From: a virus
Virus record (IMG/VR): IMGVR_UViG_3300014202_000270
Strand: one strand, 5' to 3'
Length of the DNA stretch: 64,000 bases
The notes below the pieces were generated by a model. That model did no database searches and was not told where the DNA came from. It saw only the letters and a program-made list of their open reading frames with translations. Shown here piece by piece: positions 7,688 through 35,181 of this stretch (positions are counted from its first letter, which is position 1; every line of letters begins with the position of its first letter). A program made the translations under genes and the position numbers.

Positions 7688-9911
7688 TTAGCTCGCAGCC
7701 ATCTTTACTAATTCTGGATTAGTCATAATTTTCTGGAACTTCTGTTTGTTACCAGATAATAATGCACGTACAATAAAGTACTTAATATCCTTAGTAAAGA
7801 TTTCCTCATCTGTAGAAACAGTAATGATTCTTTGAATCATATCTGGGGTAACAGGATTGTTTTCCGCATGCATTAATGCATAGTTTACAATCCGAGTGCC
7901 CATTACACTAGCAATGTCTGCTCTGTAATTATCTCCTCTACCAATGTTGGTGCGTAAAGCGCCTACAATGTATGACATATCTTTGCTGAAGATATCTTTT
8001 GGAGACAATAGTTTATCAAGTTTGTTGTTGATAAACATGGTAAACATACTAGCAAATTCATTACCAACAGAACCTTCACCAATCATTTGAATTAAACCTA
8101 GTGAATCATCAAAAGATTCAATACAAGAGATTGAGTTGAAGAAAGTAGTAATGCTACGAGGGTTGAGTGTGTCAGTAACTAACTCTGGATTCAACAACAA
8201 AAAGTTGATGCATCGAGTGTCAATATTAACTTTCTCTGCCCAGCGGGCCCATACATCAATGTCAAATTTAGTTTCAACAGTGATGAAACGAGTCTTTTGA
8301 GCATTGTCAAGAGATGTAACTTGATAGTTACCATTGTCTGGGTTAGTGGTTAATACAACGTGCCAGTTCTTTGGTAAACGCCAAGAAATATATTCTTGCC
8401 GGTCAATGATTTCCATACAAGCTTGCATAAAGCGGTGCATTTGTGTTAACTCATAGGCTCTTTATCCTATGATTCTGTAGTTTCTTTTAGATTATATCTA
8501 CAGGTCAGACTATATCATCACATATTTCTATGTGTCATGCGCTCGTGGTGTTTTACTGTCTGTTCTAGACTCCATACACTAGTCGTTGCACCTTCCTTAT
8601 ATCCCTATAAGGCTTGGCTCAGGATTGTCCATCTCTGGAGTTTCCCTGAATTCACATGATTTATTGCGGACCACCCGCTTTATGCTTTTTTCCATCTATA
8701 ACCACCAGCAGTTAAGTTCTTAGATATTGCTCTATTAATATTAGAAATACCAAGTTCTTTACTTGCTTGTTTTATAGATTCCCATTTTTTGATAAAAATA
8801 TTATCAATAGTAAATTGTAATACTGGTTCCAGCTTATATTTTTTATCTCTAGAAAAAACTAGATCTACTTTATTATAAGACCAGATATATCCACCTGCAG
8901 AAGTTGAATTACTCATACAAACTGCTTTTATGCCATTAATACTTTTGGCATTAATAGATTTAGCTGCAGCTGTAAGAGATTCATAACTTTCTAAATACTC
9001 ACCTGTATCAAGTGAATACTTATGTACCGCTTTAAGATTATGAGGTTTTAAACCATTTGCAAAAGCTTTTTTTCTAGATATGCTAATCCTTTCTCTATAT
9101 ACAGAATCTCTTACTAAACTTTGTGGGTCTAGTATGTGATTTATATAAGGATTAATCTCTCTAATGTGATAAGCTTCTCTTTCAATTAATACATCTTCAG
9201 TACAAACTTCTAAAACTTCAAAATAGATGTTATTAGCACCATATTTGTTGTATAGATTTTGCATTGTTCTGTTATGATGTTTTAAGTTTTTAAGAGACCA
9301 CAAATGGTGTTTTAACCTATGACCAATATTACAAGAGCTACCAATGTACTCTTTATCATTAATTTTAATTTTATAGATTCCTATACCCTTTAATGCTGTC
9401 TTAAGAGTTTGTGTGTTTAATTTTTCCATACCATAAAGATAATTAAATTATTCACACAAATACTTCTTGACTGCATATTTTGTTAATCCGCGCGGGTATA
9501 ATCATCTAAAATTAAGAAGCCACCTTCACCACGGCCCTGAATCCACTCTGGAGCAGCATGCGTCATACGCTTTGCCCCGGTGGGTTTATATTTAGCTTGA
9601 ATATACATTGACATTACTGAATCTTGAATCCAAACTTTTTTACCGTCATCTTTTACCATCTCAAATTCTTTGACGGGAAAACCAACAAGGTCACCTAATT
9701 CCTCAATCTGAGATAAACTTAGTTTTACAATTTGCATATTAAGCTCTTCAGCTAATTGAAGTAGAGATGAAGTCTTACCAAGACCTGCCTCGCCTTCGAT
9801 ATTCACTGCTACAGGAATCTTTCCTTCTCCTTGAATATGTTGATTGTTTTTTACAATGTGACGTAAGAACTCTTTTAGTTCGTCAAGATTTAGTTTTACT
9901 ACGTTGTTCAT
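7688..9911 (-). CDS. MoxR-like AAA+ ATPase split by a group I intron (exon 1 9486-9911, exon 2 7688-8437; 391 aa spliced)
   Basis: Walker A GEAGLGKT and Walker B LILDD in exon 1; splicing restores DDYTRAD|HRFMQACME; adjacent VWA gene. Confidence 0.9.
8438..9485 (-). mobile_element. Group I intron (1048 nt) carrying a homing endonuclease ORF in loop L1
   Basis: 5' exon ends in U, intron ends in G. Core motifs AATTCAGGGAAAC, GACAATCCTGAGCCAAG, GGTGCAACGACTA, GATATAGTCTG. IGS GCGGGTG-GTCCGC (8666-8678) pairs with 5' exon GCGGAU (U.G at the splice site) and with 3' exon CACCGC. Confidence 0.92.
8680..9429 (-). CDS. Intron-encoded GIY-YIG homing endonuclease with NUMOD1-type repeats
   Basis: GIYKI...YIGSS...RLKHH; C-terminal VHKYSLDTGEYLESYESL and VLQFTIDNIFIKKWESI repeats. 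Confidence 0.9.
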   Translation of the reverse strand: MEKLNTQTLKTALKGIGIYKIKINDKEYIGSSCNIGHRLKHHLWSLKNLKHHNRTMQNLYNKYGANNIYFEVLEVCTEDVLIEREAYHIREINPYINHILDPQSLVRDSVYRERISISRKKAFANGLKPHNLKAVHKYSLDTGEYLESYESLTAAAKSINAKSINGIKAVCMSNSTSAGGYIWSYNKVDLVFSRDKKYKLEPVLQFTIDNIFIKKWESIKQASKELGISNINRAISKNLTAGGYRWKKA

Positions 9912-13405: not shown

Positions 13406-14134
13406 TTAAAGTTCAAAATCCCCTGTGGGAGAACCAAACGACTCTCCTGTATCAAAAGGAGGTAGATCATCAGAATCACCACCACCTGCAAAAGAAGAAA
13501 CTTCTTTAGCTCCAGGTTTCTTGGTGACATGTACGTTAGCATCAAAAGGCATCAATCTAGAAGATCCCTCTTCTACATCATTTCTTTCCATTGCTACTTG
13601 ACCTTTTCCTGTTCTTGGTAGGAACAAATCATATCTTGTGTAACCCTCGCGGCTCAGATACTCCTTACCACCAATACAGAAATTAATCAATGCACCACGG
13701 AAAGGTTTTTGAGCATTTAATGCATTAACAAAAGACTCAATAGTGTCATGCTTCTCATCTTGATCATTAAACCAAGATGTTGTATCGGTAGCTTCACAGA
13801 TAGTTTTAATTGCCCGCAAGATTTCTGTATCACGAGAAACTTCACGGCCAGTTTTAGTAACACCATCTACATAGGCATACTGACTCATTTTAACGCGTCC
13901 AACTTGACCTTTGTATTTAGGCCCATCTGGTTTGTCTTTGTTAATAGCAAAACCTTCAAATCCAGGAATCTCTTTAGTTTCTAACTCCAGGATAATATGG
14001 TAGGAGTTTTCTACAAAAGTGAAAGGTTCTAGTCTTACTTCAAGAATCTTTGCTGTTACATTTCCTGGCTCAATTGTTTTTGAGACATAACTACCACCAC
14101 CTTCAGTGGTTACTTTTTTTGTGCTTAGTGCCAT
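13406..14134 (-). CDS. Putative single-stranded DNA-binding protein
   Basis: Lies between primase and AAA_24 ATPase; acidic C-terminal tail ending GDFEL. Confidence 0.55.
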   Translation of the reverse strand: MALSTKKVTTEGGGSYVSKTIEPGNVTAKILEVRLEPFTFVENSYHIILELETKEIPGFEGFAINKDKPDGPKYKGQVGRVKMSQYAYVDGVTKTGREVSRDTEILRAIKTICEATDTTSWFNDQDEKHDTIESFVNALNAQKPFRGALINFCIGGKEYLSREGYTRYDLFLPRTGKGQVAMERNDVEEGSSRLMPFDANVHVTKKPGAKEVSSFAGGGDSDDLPPFDTGESFGSPTGDFEL

Positions 14135-14145
14135 TTTTGATTGAT

Positions 14146-15102
14146 TTAAAAGTTAATGATTGATTTACGTACTAGTTCTAGATCGTTAGGAATCTCATCT
14201 GATTCAAACATTTCGAGTGGTGCTTTACATGTGTTATCGCCACTGTTCTTTGTCTCAAAGACATATCTAAGATTATTGTCCTTGTCTTTCTTTACCTTGC
14301 CATATAGTACAATGGAAAATAAACCTTCGAGAGTAAGTTTCTCGTCAATCATTTTGCCGATTGTTTTAGCTTTGGTTTTACGAGCGCCAGCGCTATCATA
14401 AAAGTCTTCAGCATGTGTAAGGAAGAAGATTACAAGATCTTGTCTCAAATCTTTTGGTGTTTTAGCAACAGCTGCTATACCGGCACCAATCTGAGTAAAT
14501 TTCTCATCGTTAAACCTATATACTTTCATATATAGCCGGACTATATCATATTTGATTTTTTTTATAGCATAAATACTTTTATAAATCAAATCCACCTCTT
14601 TAGTCTCTGAACCTTCATCCTTTATAGGAAGCTTGGCTGCGGATTGTCCATTGTACATACTATAGCTTTTTACTATACTGTTGTGATTAGCAACACCCTT
14701 TATTATATTACTATATAAAGTTAGTACCATAGTCTTTAGGATATCCCCGCAATTTAAGTGGTTTTACAAGGGCATGATTTAATTCCACCCTTTTTCTAGA
14801 GCTCTATCAAAGAACTCAAAGCTTGACATATACTGCCAATCATCAATTACAATAGTTTTGATCTCTGGCCGGGATGTGGATACATATTCTAAAGCTTTGA
14901 TAACACCTCCAGGAGTAGATGTATTACTCATGTTACCCTGGGGATAGTCTTTGCTTACAAGTATGTACTTTTCTCGCCAGCCTTTAAAAGGCAAAGGTTT
15001 GTTTGCAACGTTGATAATAAACGTTGTTTCAGGATCTAAAGTGCGGATACTGGTAGACTTACCAGATCCAGACTCAGCAATGATTAAGCATGCTTCGGCC
15101 AT
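14146..15102 (-). CDS. AAA_24/Sak4-like ATPase split by a group I intron (exon 1 14787-15102, exon 2 14146-14507; 225 aa spliced)
   Basis: Walker A AESGSGKS, Walker B IVIDD; splicing joins GGG T|AT GAG to give ALEKG-Y-EKFTQIG in frame. Confidence 0.88.
14508..14786 (-). mobile_element. ORF-less group I intron (279 nt)
   Basis: Core motifs AATTGCGGGGATATCC, GGACAATCCGCAGCCAAG, AGGTTCAGAGACTA, ATGATATAGTCC. P1 exon AAGGGU pairs with intron GCCCUU (U.G at the site); P10 UCAU pairs with 3' exon AUGA; terminal G. Confidence 0.9.
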
Positions 15103-15633: not shown

Positions 15634-16632
15634 TTATGTGATTTTGGTTAATGTTCTTTTTTCTTGTGTGGGTGGAGTATCTGTTTCTACAATCTGCATC
15701 TTCTCAAACTCTGCTTTAAAGAAACTCATTCTGTTATCGCCGTTTCTACATTTTAGGAAGTGCATGACAAGAATTTTGTCATCTTCAATAATGTATCTAT
15801 CTGGGCCATAAAATCTAATCTTTTGTTTACCTGGCCGGTTTATACCAACTACCATGTCTGCATGTTGCAACAAAGCATCGGCACCAAAAAGATCAGATTC
15901 TAGAATGTAGTTTCCATATTTACCATCTTCACTGCGCTCTGGCGAGTCAATGTTTCTGTTAAGCTGGCTTAATATGATAAATGCTATAGGATACTTTCTT
16001 TTTAACTCAGTTATTGTTTCGCTTAAATTGTAAAGTGTTTCATATTTATCTTTTTCGTAAGTCTCTTTTTTAACCAGTAGTGAATGATCTAAGGTAATAA
16101 TTGTTTTTGTAAAAACCTTCTCTTCGTCAACTATTTCTGCGTGTTCTTCCATGTAAGTTTCTACGATCTTTTTGAACTCTTTTGTTGTGCAAGGTTCATC
16201 TACAACATCAATTGGATACTTTACTCTACTCTTTGCATAAGAATAGCATTTAGTTAAATCTTCTGTTGTAAGTTGACCATCCGCGCTACATAGATACTTG
16301 TAAGATTTACCTAGATAACTGCTGTATTCACGAATGGCAGAGACACGAGCAAGCATCTCAAACTGAAACTGTAATACTCTAAACTTTTGCCCTTTATTAA
16401 GAGAATAAGCGCTTCGTATTATCTGGGCCGCAATAAGAGTTTTACCACTGCCTGGTCTTCCACCAATAACAGTCATAGAGTTCCACTCAATACCATCTGT
16501 AGATGCGTCATTAAATTTTACCCAGGGTGTTCTGATGCTTTTAATCAAGCCTTCTTGCCTACCTTTTAGGTAGTTAAGAGAATCAACAAACCCTTCCTTT
16601 TGGCTTTTCCAAGCCTGTTTACCTTTCAACAT
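15634..16632 (-). CDS. dnaB: Replicative DNA helicase (DnaB-like ATPase domain)
   Basis: GGRPGSGKT, ITLDH, ILSQLNR, SDLFGADALLQHAD, KCRNG. Confidence 0.88.
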   Translation of the reverse strand: MLKGKQAWKSQKEGFVDSLNYLKGRQEGLIKSIRTPWVKFNDASTDGIEWNSMTVIGGRPGSGKTLIAAQIIRSAYSLNKGQKFRVLQFQFEMLARVSAIREYSSYLGKSYKYLCSADGQLTTEDLTKCYSYAKSRVKYPIDVVDEPCTTKEFKKIVETYMEEHAEIVDEEKVFTKTIITLDHSLLVKKETYEKDKYETLYNLSETITELKRKYPIAFIILSQLNRNIDSPERSEDGKYGNYILESDLFGADALLQHADMVVGINRPGKQKIRFYGPDRYIIEDDKILVMHFLKCRNGDNRMSFFKAEFEKMQIVETDTPPTQEKRTLTKIT

Positions 16633-23012: not shown

Positions 23013-23396
23013 TCATAATATTTCTTTTAAAATGTAATCAAATGCTGCTGAGTACGCTTCTTGGGGTGTATTGAATATTTTAGAACTTGAGGTATATCCT
23101 ACACCGTTATAGTAGAAGTACAGCCATTTATTTTTTTGTTCTTCTTTGCAGTAAATCCAAATACCATATTTAACTCTTAGCCATTCAACCACTTGCCATT
23201 CTTCAGGTCTTGAAAACAATTCAACTTCATCCATGTGATCTTCTATTCTTTTATTCCAATTTGTCCCGGGAATATCTGAACCAATAGAGATATGATTATT
23301 TACTAATCCGTAATGATATGTACACTCTACATCAAATCCTTTTTCTTTAAGAAGTTTAGCTTGTTCAAAGGTTACATATGTTGGTACTATACTCAT
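23013..23396 (-). CDS. Hypothetical protein, tandem paralogue of 23393-23779
   Basis: Shared PTYVT.EQAK.LKEK.F, PE.WQVVEWLRV..GIWI and FN.PQEAYSAAFDYIL. Confidence 0.75.
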   Translation of the reverse strand: MSIVPTYVTFEQAKLLKEKGFDVECTYHYGLVNNHISIGSDIPGTNWNKRIEDHMDEVELFSRPEEWQVVEWLRVKYGIWIYCKEEQKNKWLYFYYNGVGYTSSSKIFNTPQEAYSAAFDYILKEIL

Positions 23397-23779
23397 AATT
23401 TTGCTAAAATGTAATCAAATGCTGCTGAATATGCTTCTTGTGGTGAGTTAAAATCACCATCTTTAAGCCTTGTATTATCTTTTCTCTTAATTTGAAAGAA
23501 GTATTTTTGGAATAAATCTGTTTCAATAACTTCAATCCAAATACCATGATTAACTCTTAACCATTCAACTACTTGCCATTGTTCAGGTGCTGAAATGTAT
23601 CCAATTAACATTTTATGCATTGGAGTATCCCCAATTGTAGTTTGAGAATGGTTTTTATACTCTCCTGTATAAAAGTTTAACCCACTATAATAAGCATAAG
23701 TAGGTAAATCAAATTCTTTCTCTTTAAGCCATTTAGCTTGTTCACGGGTGACGTATGTTGGTTTTATTTCTTGTGTCAT
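23393..23779 (-). CDS. Hypothetical protein, tandem paralogue of 23013-23396
   Basis: Same shared motifs. Confidence 0.75.
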   Translation of the reverse strand: MTQEIKPTYVTREQAKWLKEKEFDLPTYAYYSGLNFYTGEYKNHSQTTIGDTPMHKMLIGYISAPEQWQVVEWLRVNHGIWIEVIETDLFQKYFFQIKRKDNTRLKDGDFNSPQEAYSAAFDYILAKL

Positions 23780-28425: not shown

Positions 28426-28854
28426 TCAATCTTTTTCTAACAAGGGATTCTTACAGTATTCTGACATTTTTATCAGTTCAATTTCAGTAAACCTTTTTAT
28501 ATCAGATTCTTTTTCAGGATCACGGTTATCAGCAAAATAGGTTTTAACCTCATAAGATTTTTGATGATAAATAGAAAAGTCTGTGATTATGCCCATCACA
28601 TAAGTAGCGTTGTCAATGAAAAATATAAGATCTTTCTTTAGAGAATTTTCTTCGCTGTAATTGTAGCCTAAGTTTTTTGTATGAACATATACATACTCAC
28701 CAACTTTAAATTTAGGCTGCGGCAACTTTTCCTTACTAAAAAGCTCTAGATACATTGCATACAAATAGTCTTTTTCAAAACCTTGATAGGTGTTTCTTTC
28801 CAAAAGTTCTAAGATGTCTTTTACAAAATCTTTAGGTGTTTGTGGAATCTTCAT
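28426..28854 (-). CDS. Hypothetical protein
   Basis: 142-aa ORF. Confidence 0.6.
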   Translation of the reverse strand: MKIPQTPKDFVKDILELLERNTYQGFEKDYLYAMYLELFSKEKLPQPKFKVGEYVYVHTKNLGYNYSEENSLKKDLIFFIDNATYVMGIITDFSIYHQKSYEVKTYFADNRDPEKESDIKRFTEIELIKMSEYCKNPLLEKD

Positions 28855-29210
28855 TTGAGGTCACATTTATAAAATTTAGGGTACATTAGATTACTAACCT
28901 TTATCCAGTAGTTAAATGTAGTGGGTTTAAGGTGGCCACTAGGACCACCATTCCACTTTCTAGCAATTACCTCTGGATTAGTATAGTTCTTGATTTCAAC
29001 CCATTTCTCAAATGCTTCTACAGATTTTGTTCTAGAGTATCTGTCATCAAGACTAAACTCTATTCCTAATCTATTAAGTTCAGCAACCATAATTGGCCTG
29101 ATTTGTAGTACACCTACGGCATCTTCTTTAGGGTTAAATGCATTAGGGTTACCACCACTCTCTACCATTATCATAGCAGATATGAGTTTGAATAAGATTA
29201 ATCCTTTCAT
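28851..29210 (-). CDS. Lysozyme-fold (SLT/lytic transglycosylase-like) protein
   Basis: MIMVESGGNPNA...AVGVLQI...ARKWNGG. Confidence 0.75.
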   Translation of the reverse strand: MKGLILFKLISAMIMVESGGNPNAFNPKEDAVGVLQIRPIMVAELNRLGIEFSLDDRYSRTKSVEAFEKWVEIKNYTNPEVIARKWNGGPSGHLKPTTFNYWIKVSNLMYPKFYKCDLK

Positions 29211-29344
29211 AGTTCTTGTTTTTTAGAGATTTCTGAAATGTGTTCTATAATGACACTCATGAAAGGAGTAAAATCCAATCCATAATATGCCTCGGTTGTG
29301 TCTCTCCAACCTAATTCTTGAAACTTTTTATCTAATTCTTCCAT
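29207..29344 (-). CDS. Small hypothetical protein (45 aa, MEELDKK...)
   Basis: Start re-placed downstream of the tRNA-like element. Confidence 0.5.
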   Translation of the reverse strand: MEELDKKFQELGWRDTTEAYYGLDFTPFMSVIIEHISEISKKQEL

Positions 29345-29359
29345 TTGTTTTAAATTAGT

Positions 29360-29431
29360 AGTCAGGGCGGGATTTGAAATTGCATTTGTCACAATATTTT
29401 GTTTAGCGTCTACCAATTCCGCCACCTGACT
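29360..29431 (-). tRNA. Degenerate tRNA-like element (72 nt)
   Basis: Acceptor AGTCAGG/CCTGACT; canonical D arm TGGCGGAATTGGTAGACGC; TTCAAATCCCGC T-loop remnant; anticodon and T stems decayed. Confidence 0.7.
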
Positions 29432-29436
29432 GTACT

Positions 29437-29574
29437 TTATATATAAATCTGAATGATTAAGAAAGGAATTTCTAATGAAATATATCTACGATTTGGTATA
29501 GTAGAAGTCCCCCATGTTATCATCAATCCTATTTGATTGAAAGTCATCAGTCTTCCCCATTTATATTCTTTCAT
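29437..29574 (-). CDS. Small hypothetical protein (45 aa)
   Basis: Hand translation MKEYKWGRLMTFNQIGLMITWGTSTIPNRRYISLEIPFLIIQIYI. Confidence 0.55.
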   Translation of the reverse strand: MKEYKWGRLMTFNQIGLMITWGTSTIPNRRYISLEIPFLIIQIYI

Positions 29575-29590
29575 ACTTTTTTTAAGTTAA

Positions 29591-29625
29591 TTTGTAGTCA
29601 GGACAGGATTCCGCCACCTGACTAT
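29591..29625 (-). repeat. 35-bp tRNA-derived mini-hairpin repeat, copy 1
   Basis: tttgtagtcaggacaggattccgccacctgactat, identical to 29941-29975. Confidence 0.9.
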
Positions 29626-29627
29626 TT

Positions 29628-29921
29628 TTAATCTGTTACGTAATTCAAATTGTGTTTTTGTGCAACTTCTATAAACTTATCCTTAACAAAGTCGTCTATC
29701 GATTTATATTCTCCACTATCCTTGGCCATTTCCCACCACCAACCTCTAATCTCGTCTAATTGTGAGATATCATTGATGAATGGATAATGTAAATCCCTAT
29801 TGTGTAAGTCAATCAGCATCACTGAATAATTTTCAATATCAGTTCCTGCACTTAAATCGTTACCATAGACTTCACATTCTACAATAGTTTGATTTCTTTG
29901 ATTCCTTAAAAAATGTATCAT
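29628..29921 (-). CDS. Hypothetical protein flanked by the 35-bp repeats
   Basis: 97-aa ORF. Confidence 0.7.
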   Translation of the reverse strand: MIHFLRNQRNQTIVECEVYGNDLSAGTDIENYSVMLIDLHNRDLHYPFINDISQLDEIRGWWWEMAKDSGEYKSIDDFVKDKFIEVAQKHNLNYVTD

Positions 29922-29940
29922 TTTGTTTGTTTTTATTTAG

Positions 29941-29975
29941 TTTGTAGTCAGGACAGGATTCCGCCACCTGACTAT
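29941..29975 (-). repeat. 35-bp tRNA-derived mini-hairpin repeat, copy 2
   Basis: Identical to 29591-29625. Confidence 0.9.
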
Positions 29976-29981
29976 GTTTAT

Positions 29982-30389
29982 CTATTCTCTAGTCCAGAGA
30001 ATATAAAACTTGTCTTTACTCGTAGTTTCTATAGATGCGTGGTATGAGTTACCTTTTGTATAAACTCTCCACGATTTATTACTTAAAACTACAAAATGTT
30101 TGTTATAATCTTGAATTGCGGCGTTAAACTTAAATGCATCGTTATAAAAGATAGCGTTTGTTATACATTCGCCATTTTTGTAAAACAATAGAGCAACTCT
30201 TTCCGGGTGCTCATGAGATAATAGAGTAACTACCACTTGACCTTTATAGTCTTCTTCTTTGTCAATGTAGTTCCCGTCTTCTGTTAGGGACTCTTTCATT
30301 GCTTTGTAAGTGTGATCTATATAGATCATGTTTTGAGCGTTTGCAGCGCTTCCTATAAACAGTAATAAGAGAAATAATAGATTTTTCAT
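29982..30389 (-). CDS. Secreted hypothetical protein (signal peptide)
   Basis: MKNLLFLLLLFIGSAANA|Q. Confidence 0.7.
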   Translation of the reverse strand: MKNLLFLLLLFIGSAANAQNMIYIDHTYKAMKESLTEDGNYIDKEEDYKGQVVVTLLSHEHPERVALLFYKNGECITNAIFYNDAFKFNAAIQDYNKHFVVLSNKSWRVYTKGNSYHASIETTSKDKFYILWTRE

Positions 30390-30406
30390 AATTGATTGTG
30401 TATAAA

Positions 30407-30432
30407 GGGCGGGGATTAGTTTCCCCGCCCAT
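30407..30432. terminator. GC-rich hairpin, probable terminator or processing site
   Basis: gggcgggga/tccccgccc inverted repeat. Confidence 0.5.
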
Positions 30433-30446
30433 GGTTCAAAAATAGT

Positions 30447-31398: not shown

Positions 31399-31590
31399 GG
31401 TTTTTGGTTTTTAAAAGAGGTTATTCATCCACTAGAGTAGGATGATTCACTGTGTTTTACACCTAAAACTTTGATAAAGGTTTAACAAACCTATAAAGTA
31501 CTGCAGCACATTTTGTGTTATTCTGCATTGTTCTTAAATCAAAGAAAAACTGGTGCCCTCAACAACTTGGGAAGTTATTAAGTTTTTTAC

Positions 31591-31703
31591 CCCTCTGCAC
31601 TCAGTTGTAGTCCCACACTTTCGACTATCCATAGAAACCTATTTATGGTGACTACACCGCCTATGGTAGTATGTGGTTTACGTGTCTCTACTACTACAAC
31701 TGA
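31591..31703 (-). ncRNA. Candidate structured RNA element A
   Basis: 19-nt flank ccctctgcactcagttgta shared with element B; 11-bp closing helix 31601-31611/31693-31703. Confidence 0.5.
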
Positions 31704-31859: not shown

Positions 31860-31896
31860 AATGTTTATTTTTAAAATGATTGATAATTAATTAGTT

Positions 31897-31998
31897 ATCC
31901 CTCTGCACTCAGTTGTAATAGTTTTAGTCCTATTGTTCCAATAACTACTAAGGTGAGACTCTACAATACTCACATTACAACTGCTCACCCCTTGGGAG
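31897..31998 (-). ncRNA. Candidate structured RNA element B
   Basis: Same 19-nt flank at 31899-31917; 10-bp helix 31910-31919/31974-31983; internal hairpins tattg/caata and gtgag/ctcac. Confidence 0.5.
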
Positions 31999-33447: not shown

Positions 33448-33927
33448 CGCTAGGTATTCTCCGTGCTATATCTCCCAAATGTTATCTGGTGCCTGGCCTA
33501 AATTAGTTTGATTATCAAGTTACTAAGAATAGGGGGTATATGGCCACCCACTCACTGATACTCAAGCACTTACGTCGTGTTACTTAAAGTAAAACTGCTG
33601 TATTTATGTTGTTGTTGTGAGTGATAAGCGACCCCCACCAGTGATATCGTAAACAATCGCCTTTTCGCGAGTTTATCCACGCGGTGGGAAAGTGAGACTA
33701 ACTGCTTGATTATCAATACTAACTTCATCGTAAACAATTTTAGTTTTTAGCGTCTAGAGATGAGCGACACCCCGAGTGCAATTTTACTCGAGGTACTTGA
33801 TAATGAGAAGGTTAGGCTTATAACTCATAACCCGGCAGGCCCCGCTTGTTTCTGCGGGTGGATTTGAGGGTGGGCTTAACGAAGCAAAAGAATGTAAATT
33901 TGGCACACACTGAAAAAAAAGGTAATT

Positions 33928-34505: not shown

Positions 34506-34631
34506 AGTTTTTGGATTTAGTGGTTGTGTTGCAAAATTGCATTATGTCTTAACGGATTAAATGAATGTAAATTTGGCATAAACAGAAGCAAAAGCAACCG
34601 TGGCTCGAGGCCACGGCTACTTGTTCAGGTA

Positions 34632-35072: not shown

Positions 35073-35181
35073 AATGTAAAAGGATTTAGTTAATTAACCA
35101 AGTGAATGTAAATTTGGCACACACACATACAAAAGGAATAACGAGGCTTGCGCCCCGTTATCCTAACCAAATACACCTTAT

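Follow-up and report, generated by a model that had tools for sequence, protein, structure and literature searches.

Probable damaged copies of a non-decoding tRNA-Leu-like RNA family at gene boundaries, and gene exchange through them, in a putative crAss-like phage

We examined three tRNA-derived elements that lie between small genes at 29,207 to 30,389 of a 64,000-nucleotide (nt) stretch of viral DNA (IMG/VR record IMGVR_UViG_3300014202_000270), hereafter the window. All coding from ~28.4 to 31.4 kb is on the minus strand, and every feature of the locus given here is on that strand. In the direction of reading, the locus opens with a gene of 135 amino acids (aa) with a signal-peptide-like N-terminus (29982..30389), which had no significant match in Pfam and forms the conserved left flank of what proved to be a variable locus. 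There follow a miniature element (mini A, 29945..29974), a 97-aa gene to which no function is assigned (29628..29921), a second miniature element of the same sequence (mini B, 29595..29624), a 45-aa open reading frame (ORF) whose coding status is unsupported (29437..29574), a 73-nt tRNA-like pseudogene (29359..29431) and a 45-aa gene beginning MEELDKK (29207..29344), which is the conserved right flank by comparison with sibling phages. A lysozyme-like gene with an SLT domain (28851..29210; PF01464, E = 2e-5) comes next. The genes were taken from an ORF list, the minis were located by pattern and repeat searches, and the 73-nt element was delimited by its alignment to the Rfam tRNA model; neither the 97-aa gene nor the 45-aa ORF upstream of the 73-nt element had a Pfam match. 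A reading made beforehand from the letters alone (the sequence-only reading) had described three consecutive small genes, each followed at its boundary by a tRNA-derived element, and the layout, the motif statistics and the Rfam alignment all bear this out. Its claim on spacing held for the distance from stop codon to element (7 nt for mini A, 3 nt for mini B and 5 nt for the 73-nt element), while the distance from the discriminator base to the next ATG (23, 20 and 14 nt, respectively) ranges slightly wider than the 15–20 nt it had given.

Both minis consist of an 8-bp stem (TAGTCAGG/CCTGACTA) enclosing a 14-nt loop. Aligned with full-length elements of sibling phages (alignment A2), each corresponds to a full element with the interval from the GAAT of the D loop to that of the T loop removed: the 5' acceptor strand and the start of the D arm up to GAAT are joined to the last 5 nt of the T stem, the 3' acceptor strand and the discriminator A. 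The two copies are identical, as had been claimed, at 30 nt by the present coordinates, and the fusion through a shared GAAT that had been proposed for them is what the alignment displays. The likeness extends beyond the minis themselves, the 54 nt surrounding each being 91% alike (repeat family D5). The 16-mer AGTCAGGTGGCGGAAT occurs exactly three times in the window, always at this locus; allowing up to three mismatches, 0.25 matches would be expected, and none of 100 shuffled sequences reached three. The full stem pattern occurs twice in the window against an expectation of zero. In the predicted fold of the mini a UG bulge separates 8 bp from 4 bp that are closed by a tetraloop (-14.2 kcal/mol; z = -3.0 for A and -3.2 for B).

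The third element aligned end to end with the Rfam tRNA model at 24.7 bits (E = 0.022 in 1.5 kb), below the gathering score of 29. Its acceptor stem and leucine-type D arm are intact, its anticodon region could not be aligned, and its T stem contains three non-pairs, GCAAT/CCCGC forming 2 of 5 pairs around a loop, TTCAAAT, that is present; the sequence-only reading had described a third element with the same acceptor stem, a canonical D arm and scrambled anticodon and T arms, and this is what the alignment gave. The acceptor strands and discriminator, AGTCAGG...CCTGACT-A-C, are common to all three window elements. The D arm is complete in the 73-nt element and reduced to its first 9 nt (TGGCGGAAT) in the minis, where only the 3' strand CCTGT remains of the T arm. 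ARAGORN found no tRNA gene in the 64 kb, the minis had no Rfam tRNA match, and a permissive Rfam scan of the whole window by E-value gave no further tRNA-like match and did not itself list the 73-nt element. The window elements thus fail as canonical tRNAs, with a sub-threshold score, no anticodon arm and an unpaired T stem.

Among the proteins of the phage are a major capsid protein of the Crassvirus type (PF23898, 1e-29) and a P22-like portal protein; its replication genes are on the minus strand and its structural genes on the plus strand. Its nearest record, G001, is a 118-kb viral contig estimated to be 99% complete; a near-identity search of GenBank phages with the segment from 25 to 35 kb of the window returned no match. 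Public runs matching parts of the stretch came mostly from lakes, rivers and other freshwater, and also from sediment, subsurface and hydrocarbon-site samples. Repeated upstream motifs of the phage hold the Bacteroidota -7 box TAnnTTTG, and our reading is that the virus is crAss-like and infects Bacteroidota of fresh water. One such box, TATTTTTG (30444-30437), lies with a GC-rich hairpin immediately before the 135-aa gene (30397..30444 together, minus strand). In a motif scan of this region TAnnTTTG occurred on the minus strand at 31493, 30444 and 28362 only; neither a -7 box nor a terminator-like site was found on that strand from ~30444 to 28400, and a terminator scan of the minus strand over 30390-28060 was likewise empty. 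The box at 30444 is therefore the probable start of one transcription unit containing all three elements.

This layout bears on whether the elements are plain transcription terminators or antisense terminators. They do form stable hairpins, and a plus-strand T-run follows copy B. That T-run, which had been mentioned as a possible sign of antisense termination, is explained by the end of the 97-aa gene, whose TAA-AAA it complements. Downstream of the stems the coding strand continues with CAAA... and has no U tract, the terminator scan misses the elements on either strand, and no plus-strand genes converge here. The elements are, moreover, homologous to tRNA-like elements and not to the GC-rich terminator hairpins of the phage at ~30400 and 28395, and we consider termination a most improbable function for them.

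The flanks of the locus are 93–97% identical at the nucleotide level in four other contigs (G001/L061, L315, L316 and L317), in which the 135-aa gene is 89–94% identical, and these four together with the window constitute five sibling loci. The position 7 nt after the stop of the 135-aa gene (slot 1) holds an element in all five: mini A in the window and elements of 92 nt in L315, 102 nt in L316, 96 nt in L317 and 123 nt in G001, where an endonuclease gene and an orphan 3' end come behind it. From sibling to sibling the centres in slot 1 are unrelated (alignment A2). The position just before the MEELDKK gene (slot 2) holds elements of 73 nt in the window (T stem GCAAT/CCCGC), 71 nt in L316 (GCAAG/CTTGC), 100 nt in G001 (GCGGG/CCCGC) and 99 nt in L317 (GAGGG/CCCTC) (alignment A1). 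The L317 T stem is compensatory relative to that of G001, and the L316 element has the centre of the window copy together with an intact T stem. The body of the window copy, 5' T strand GCAAT included, is of the L316 type and its 3' T strand, CCCGC, of the G001 type; the T stem fails because the copy is a mosaic of the two.

The genes between the slots vary as well. The window has the 97-aa gene, mini B and the 45-aa ORF; G001, L316 and L317 have a 67-aa membrane-protein gene; and L315 has nothing, a single element directly joining the two flanking genes. The 97-aa gene is confined to the window phage among the siblings, and the 45-aa ORF is absent from the other four, a related stretch occurring in metagenome contigs. 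Cassette-like variation between the repeats, which the sequence-only reading had named as a test of its own proposal, was accordingly found, five sibling loci having five different contents, and it is inside or at the elements that homology to the siblings, as to an unrelated 288-kb contig, breaks off. Between the window and G001 homology ends at the slot-1 D-loop GAAT and resumes within the slot-2 T arm. In a sixth relative, L064, whose lysozyme-like protein is 95% identical, the upstream genes are entirely different and there is no element, and relatives recovered through the lysozyme-like gene at ~62% identity had no elements or tRNAs nearby and were for that reason uninformative.

The 288-kb contig, L223, belongs to a different phage. 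Its copy of the 97-aa gene is 96% identical to the window at the nucleotide level over 29961-29608 only, a span running from the 3' end of mini A and the leader to the GAAT of mini B, and at the place of mini B, after the 97-aa gene, L223 carries a full element of ~112 nt. Because of this homology and the full element at the mini B position, we conclude that a unit of gene plus downstream element has moved between unrelated phages, with mini B probably being that element minus its interior. A 77% homolog of the 97-aa gene in L224 has no elements. We also observed in L223, upstream of the 97-aa gene (330-395), a tRNA-like 3' end (GGTTCGAATCC followed by a different acceptor strand), such that the gene is bracketed by tRNA-shaped elements there too.

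In genome dynamics, the nearest known system is the PeSL cassettes of T4-type phages, in which conserved short repeats between genes flank small ORFs in hyperplastic regions and act as portable homology for gene insertion, deletion and replacement among related phages (Arbiol et al., 2010, PMC2839356; Comeau et al., 2014, PMC4122927). Both systems have a repeated intergenic motif that flanks ORFs differing between relatives, with breakpoints in the motif. A PeSL, however, is an early promoter with a terminator stem-loop, whereas the window elements are tRNA-derived and have neither promoter box nor U tract, and their full-length forms are covarying structured RNAs.

To place the elements in a wider family we searched viral contigs. 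A first scan that required both stem halves with a gap of 10–40 nt was noisy and excluded full-length elements by design; it was replaced by scans anchored on the 5' frame and on the T arm. The exact 17-mer of the 5' frame, TAGTCAGGTGGCGGAAT, was present in more than 120 viral contigs, a lower bound, and from the 17-mer matches listed we extracted 170 unique elements with a common acceptor/D/T frame and centres very unlike in length and sequence. Members run in the order acceptor strand, TG, leucine-type D arm, centre of ~20–140 nt, T arm, 3' acceptor strand, A and usually C. The commonest acceptor stem is AGTCAGG/CCTGACT (7 bp), found with the terminal A-C in 136 of 153 members, and the commonest T arm is ACAGG-TTCGAAT-CCTGT. 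The T stem is fully paired in 144 of the 153, with many double compensatory variants, and the window 73-nt copy is among the nine that fail. The T-arm-anchored scan further retrieved the same D arm and variable centre with ~10 other fully complementary acceptor stems, still followed by AC, and we therefore conclude that the helices are selected as RNA.

The D arm, TGGCGGAAT(T)GGTAGACGC, is of the class II, leucine type, and together with the discriminator A and a leucine-type T arm it likens the family to bacterial class II tRNA-Leu. In contrast to that tRNA, the family has no anticodon stem-loop and has unrelated centres of 20–140 nt where the anticodon and variable arms would be, and ARAGORN and Rfam mostly reject it. 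Since ARAGORN accepted only 36 of the 170 elements, with scattered or impossible anticodons, the family RNAs do not decode. Nor is the family a host tRNA: its 3' 22-mer had only 18 matches in 185,579 species genomes, all on contigs of metagenome-assembled genomes (MAGs), and the family is on that account viral. The MAG bins concerned were mostly Bacteroidota (Chitinophagia, Sediminibacterium, Flavobacterium and Saprospiraceae). Rfam 15 had no model for the family and gave weak tRNA matches only, and literature searches returned no description specific to it. An intact member has a TTCRANT loop closed by a paired T stem of 5 bp. Against this background the window copies, with their T arms missing or broken, are derivatives of the parent family and not intact members.

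Family members usually lie among the small, co-oriented genes of operons in freshwater Bacteroidota phages, and some are located in ordinary tRNA arrays. A co-oriented ORF starts within 80 nt downstream of 52% of 176 elements (mode 10–25 nt), against 16% in the antisense control, and an ORF stops within 60 nt upstream of 44% (mode 5–10 nt), against 15%. In the contig L049 a stretch of 1.3 kb holds five elements (147, 39, 100, 124 and 104 nt), and behind four of these the ATG of a small ORF comes within ~20 nt. No protein always accompanied the family when 1,812 ORFs from 114 loci were clustered all against all, the best cluster covering 11 of the 114 loci. In metagenomes the summed contig depth in element-holding bins was ~10- to 2,000-fold that of flanking genes, depending on run and bin. 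Family frames were also present in metatranscriptome assemblies of four studies, contigs that show presence only and not ends, strand or level; in one RNA contig an adapter directly followed ...CCTGAC, which is anecdotal. Apparent joints in DNA runs were considered as excision products and rejected as cross-matches between different elements, the frames being common to very many contigs. The ideas of a tmRNA-like RNA (no G3:U70, and a full D arm) and of a Y-RNA mimic (no Ro-binding stem, and no Ro gene seen) were dropped as well.

Alongside these elements we noted shorter versions of 52–57 nt (L013:7188-7241, L014:3893-3946, L026, L053 and L030), which have the same acceptor stem and T arm and one short hairpin in place of the D arm and centre. 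The hairpin covaries between contigs, and these versions may be a distinct shorter sub-family and not deletions. Contigs with such three-arm (~55-nt) relatives also encode GOLLD RNA (322 bits) and phage tmRNAs (L014:7219-7625 and 7805-8203; L026:78-450), and in L026 a distance of 11 nt separates the tRNA-like element from the tmRNA gene downstream of it.

With conserved inverted-repeat ends, a centre of variable sequence and length, one small promoterless ORF per unit and co-oriented arrays of up to five units (L049), the elements resemble integron attC sites, and an integron-like system can be envisaged in which the ends serve as att sites and units of gene plus element move as circles. The order mini-gene-mini would fit insertion of a circular gene with its joined element at the GAAT of a mini. 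In G001, the sibling estimated to be 99% complete, no tyrosine recombinase domain (Phage_integrase, PF00589) is present, however, the window itself not having been scanned exhaustively. Unlike integrons, the family has no IntI-type recombinase and no R/L core-site pattern, and no recurrent protein family stands beside the elements. The conserved D- and T-loop sequence and the stem covariation, which tolerates and preserves G-U pairs, point to selection on RNA and not on DNA, and the left boundary of the shared 97-aa module falls in the leader and not at a fixed core site. The att or integrase system that had been suggested is consequently very unlikely. Exchange of a cassette-like kind is real; it looks homologous or endonuclease-driven and not like the work of an integrase system.

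We then turned to the endonuclease gene of G001. The ORF within its slot 1 matched Pfam PDDEXK_5 (7e-23) and PDB 2OST (1e-6), the latter being of the I-Ssp6803I type, encoded in a tRNA-gene intron. Homologs 87–93% identical occur in four more contigs (L226-L229) in the same arrangement: a full altered element, a spacer with a TATATTTG -7 box, the ORF and then an intact TCCTGT-CCTGACT-AC abutting its stop. The upstream element in all five has a 1-nt insertion or other change in its T-stem/3'-acceptor sequence. L230 (79% identity) shows just the end of this arrangement, with the ORF continuing into an intact CCTGACT-AC. The gene thus sits at one fixed T-loop junction in five phage contigs, each time beside an altered copy of the site, and it is at this junction, AAT|CCTGT, that the minis are joined as well. 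In L104, L112 and L146 the 3' acceptor strand is interrupted by other insertions. No endonuclease homolog was found in the window.

The insertion geometry suggests that the conserved T-loop/3'-acceptor DNA is the homing site of this PD-(D/E)XK enzyme, and variant or deleted sites would then be immune to it. As with I-Ssp6803I (PD-(D/E)XK, PDB 2OST, PF11645), a PDDEXK_5 gene is lodged in a tRNA-shaped gene and the endonuclease allele carries an altered presumed target. In distinction from I-Ssp6803I, the phage enzyme is free-standing with its own promoter and is not in a group I intron, its position is the T loop and 3' end and not the anticodon loop, and its host gene is a non-decoding look-alike. 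A group I intron holding the gene was considered and rejected, as the boundaries misfit the U...G splice pair and L061 had no Rfam intron match. Other homing enzymes that target tRNA genes include T4 SegB and the F-Tfl enzymes in the tRNA gene clusters of T5. Fragments of prokaryotic tRNA genes are mainly 3' ends duplicated by integrases at attachment sites (bioRxiv 10.1101/2022.07.05.498093, PMC9897764). The orphan 3' piece of G001 and the minis are likewise partial, non-functional pieces left by mobile elements, but here in a lytic-type phage without an integrase, and derived from a tRNA-like gene and not from a true tRNA gene.

Taken together, the window elements are likely to be damaged copies of a phage-specific, non-decoding tRNA-Leu-like RNA family, with gene swapping taking place via the elements. 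The minis are most simply recent internal deletions, since siblings carry full-length elements in the same slots. All 110 other unique elements at 5'-anchored loci were full length among the matches listed, one further mini of identical sequence being found in L002 (about 1 in 111), and the proposal that retention of only the acceptor helix is a selected design accordingly does not stand. The L002 mini was also considered as a possible deletion allele of the L226 endonuclease locus; the flanks of the two showed no homology. Our verdict is that the mini form reflects decay and not design, and that there is no evidence for a dedicated att system.

We propose the following mechanism. The conserved family frame would work as portable homology, with breaks within elements being observed, and would also be the target of a PD-(D/E)XK homing endonuclease, through a cleavage step that we infer. 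Element centres and the small genes between them would as a result be replaced at high frequency. The minis would be scars, left either by replication slippage between two 4-nt GAAT repeats or by repair of an endonuclease break in the T loop through those repeats, and a mini without a T arm would presumably be immune to re-cutting. The 73-nt copy would be a recombinant of two allelic elements with differently covarying T stems, and hence unpaired. By analogy with tRNA processing, host RNase P and RNase Z would release full-length relatives from the polycistronic transcripts that contain them, and in doing so would necessarily cut the mRNA at gene boundaries.

Several observations weigh against the minis being mere scars and against other parts of this account. 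The minis are identical and lie 3–7 nt after stops, both acceptor strands are perfect, and the predicted hairpin is a stable bulged one of 12 bp (z about -3) whose 3' strand would run unbroken through the stack, as in an acceptor/T minihelix; these features would suit a function kept in the processing or stabilisation of RNA. At gene boundaries elsewhere there are similar minis whose loops differ slightly (L002, L011, L021/L022 and a 39-nt L004 type that keeps the D arm), those of L011, L021/L022 and the L004 type having other junctions and coming from the pattern that demanded both stem halves, a biased sample in which intact stems prove nothing. That each of the five siblings has a tRNA-like element at slot 1 is a hint that such elements serve locally in cis and are not purely selfish, and the three elements lie within one apparent transcription unit. 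The target of the endonuclease, finally, is deduced purely from insertion geometry. A residual role of the minis in RNA processing or protection is accordingly conceivable, though we think it doubtful.

Such a role would amount to functional punctuation, in which the elements are kept as cut sites for host RNase P and RNase Z (or another structure-specific RNase) or as caps against 3' exonucleases. The spacing of the three elements within their transcription unit (3–7 nt after stops and 14–23 nt before starts), the enrichment of the family at such gene-boundary positions, its covariation at the RNA level, the 8 + 4 bp stack open to the mini and the family frames in metatranscriptome assemblies all favour it. 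RNase P and RNase Z, though, measure their substrates by the T loop and T stem, which the minis lack and which in the 73-nt copy has a broken stem. Minis make up only ~1 in 111 family members, with siblings having full elements instead, the RNA data are contigs, which cannot show ends, and L064, a close relative, does without any element ahead of its lysozyme-like gene. On balance we hold punctuation by the window copies to be possible but rather unlikely. Its nearest functional analogue would be the tRNA punctuation of mitochondria and the t-elements of plants, tRNA-like structures at mRNA boundaries that are processed by tRNA-maturing nucleases (Forner et al., 2007, PMC1920247). There too, non-decoding tRNA-like structures mark gene boundaries in polycistronic RNA, and the window elements similarly stand between co-transcribed genes without a promoter or terminator of their own. 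The window copies differ in having no working T arm and the phage family in having a hypervariable centre and in being also a target of recombination and of a putative homing endonuclease, and RNA processing of the phage elements is a prediction.

At the level of the family, the RNAs might instead act in trans, as a tRNA chassis that is processed, perhaps CCA-tailed and even leucylated, and that presents a fast-evolving cargo, for example a decoy or inhibitor of host tRNA-directed defences; the window copies would then be inactivated alleles. Centres are wholly replaced between phages whose flanks are 93–97% identical, and sub-families of centres are common to unrelated contigs and covary, both as such a role would predict. 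A -7 box of its own stands just upstream of 12 of 159 elements against 2 of 159 controls. The discriminator A73 and a leucine-type D arm form the identity set of leucyl-tRNA synthetase (LeuRS) in E. coli, and both features are present in the family frame. Non-decoding RNAs with tRNA-like ends, co-transcribed and processed with tRNAs, are known in T4 as the stable RNAs C and D (species 1 and 2). Those, likened here by description only, are single genes in a tRNA cluster, in contrast to a hypervariable multi-copy family between protein genes. However, no recurrent partner protein was found, and the window phage is evidently able to do without the centres and T arms of all three elements. We therefore regard trans action as unlikely, a little more so than punctuation.

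The boldest combination of these ideas would be one tRNA-Leu chassis carrying hundreds of fast-changing RNA cargos, excised by host RNase P and RNase Z and possibly CCA-tailed and charged, which at once punctuates operons of small genes, serves as the universal homology and endonuclease target by which Bacteroidota phages exchange accessory genes, and delivers trans-acting RNAs in an arms race with the host; the window would show the decayed end of this phage-wide system, with the minis as endonuclease-resistant minimal processing sites and not dead scars. As a whole we advance this tentatively, as a minority view beside the damaged-copy account that we prefer.

Elsewhere in the window we recorded further features. 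Two group I introns, both above the Rfam threshold, lie on the minus strand in the replication-gene arm (8488-8724, 84.9 bits; 14517-14822, 60.6 bits), and each separates two adjacent minus-strand ORFs that may be exons of a single gene: 7688-8440 and 8680-9429 for the first intron, 13406-14134 and 15634-16632 (a DnaB-like helicase) for the second. A Hatchet ribozyme (RF02678; 32924-33087, minus strand, 64.1 bits, E = 9e-11) heads ~1.7 kb (31.4–33.1 kb) that is mostly non-coding on the minus strand. The same non-coding stretch holds a 34-nt direct repeat (31576-31609 and 31884-31917, 82% alike), whose minus-strand reading contains ACAACTGAGTGCAGAGGG, with a 26-nt exact match to L034:9946-9971, an unrelated viral contig. 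The repeat could be a further conserved RNA motif. Where the plus-strand arm begins, a 47-nt motif with TAAATTTG (a TAnnTTTG -7 box) is present in three plus-strand copies 540–670 nt apart (33875-33921, 34548-34594 and 35089-35135), which are probably repeated promoters. A tandem duplication at 23018-23767 with a period of ~377 nt (repeat families D2-D4, 81–85% identity) probably represents two paralogous small genes.

Sequences that enable fast turnover of accessory genes in phages are known in few cases, such as the PeSLs of T4, and a tRNA-shaped RNA gene appears to play a PeSL-like part here. Five near-identical phages catch this turnover at several stages: replacement of a centre, a gene swap, invasion by an endonuclease, internal deletion and a broken-stem mosaic. 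The parent family is the more interesting object, to which this locus adds a clear allelic series, a turnover mechanism and the link to a homing endonuclease. Abundant in freshwater viromes and missed by tRNA finders and Rfam, the family marks a gap in annotation and possibly a new class of phage RNA. Should its elements prove to be processed, they would be a counterpart, in viruses of bacteria, of the tRNA punctuation of mitochondria.

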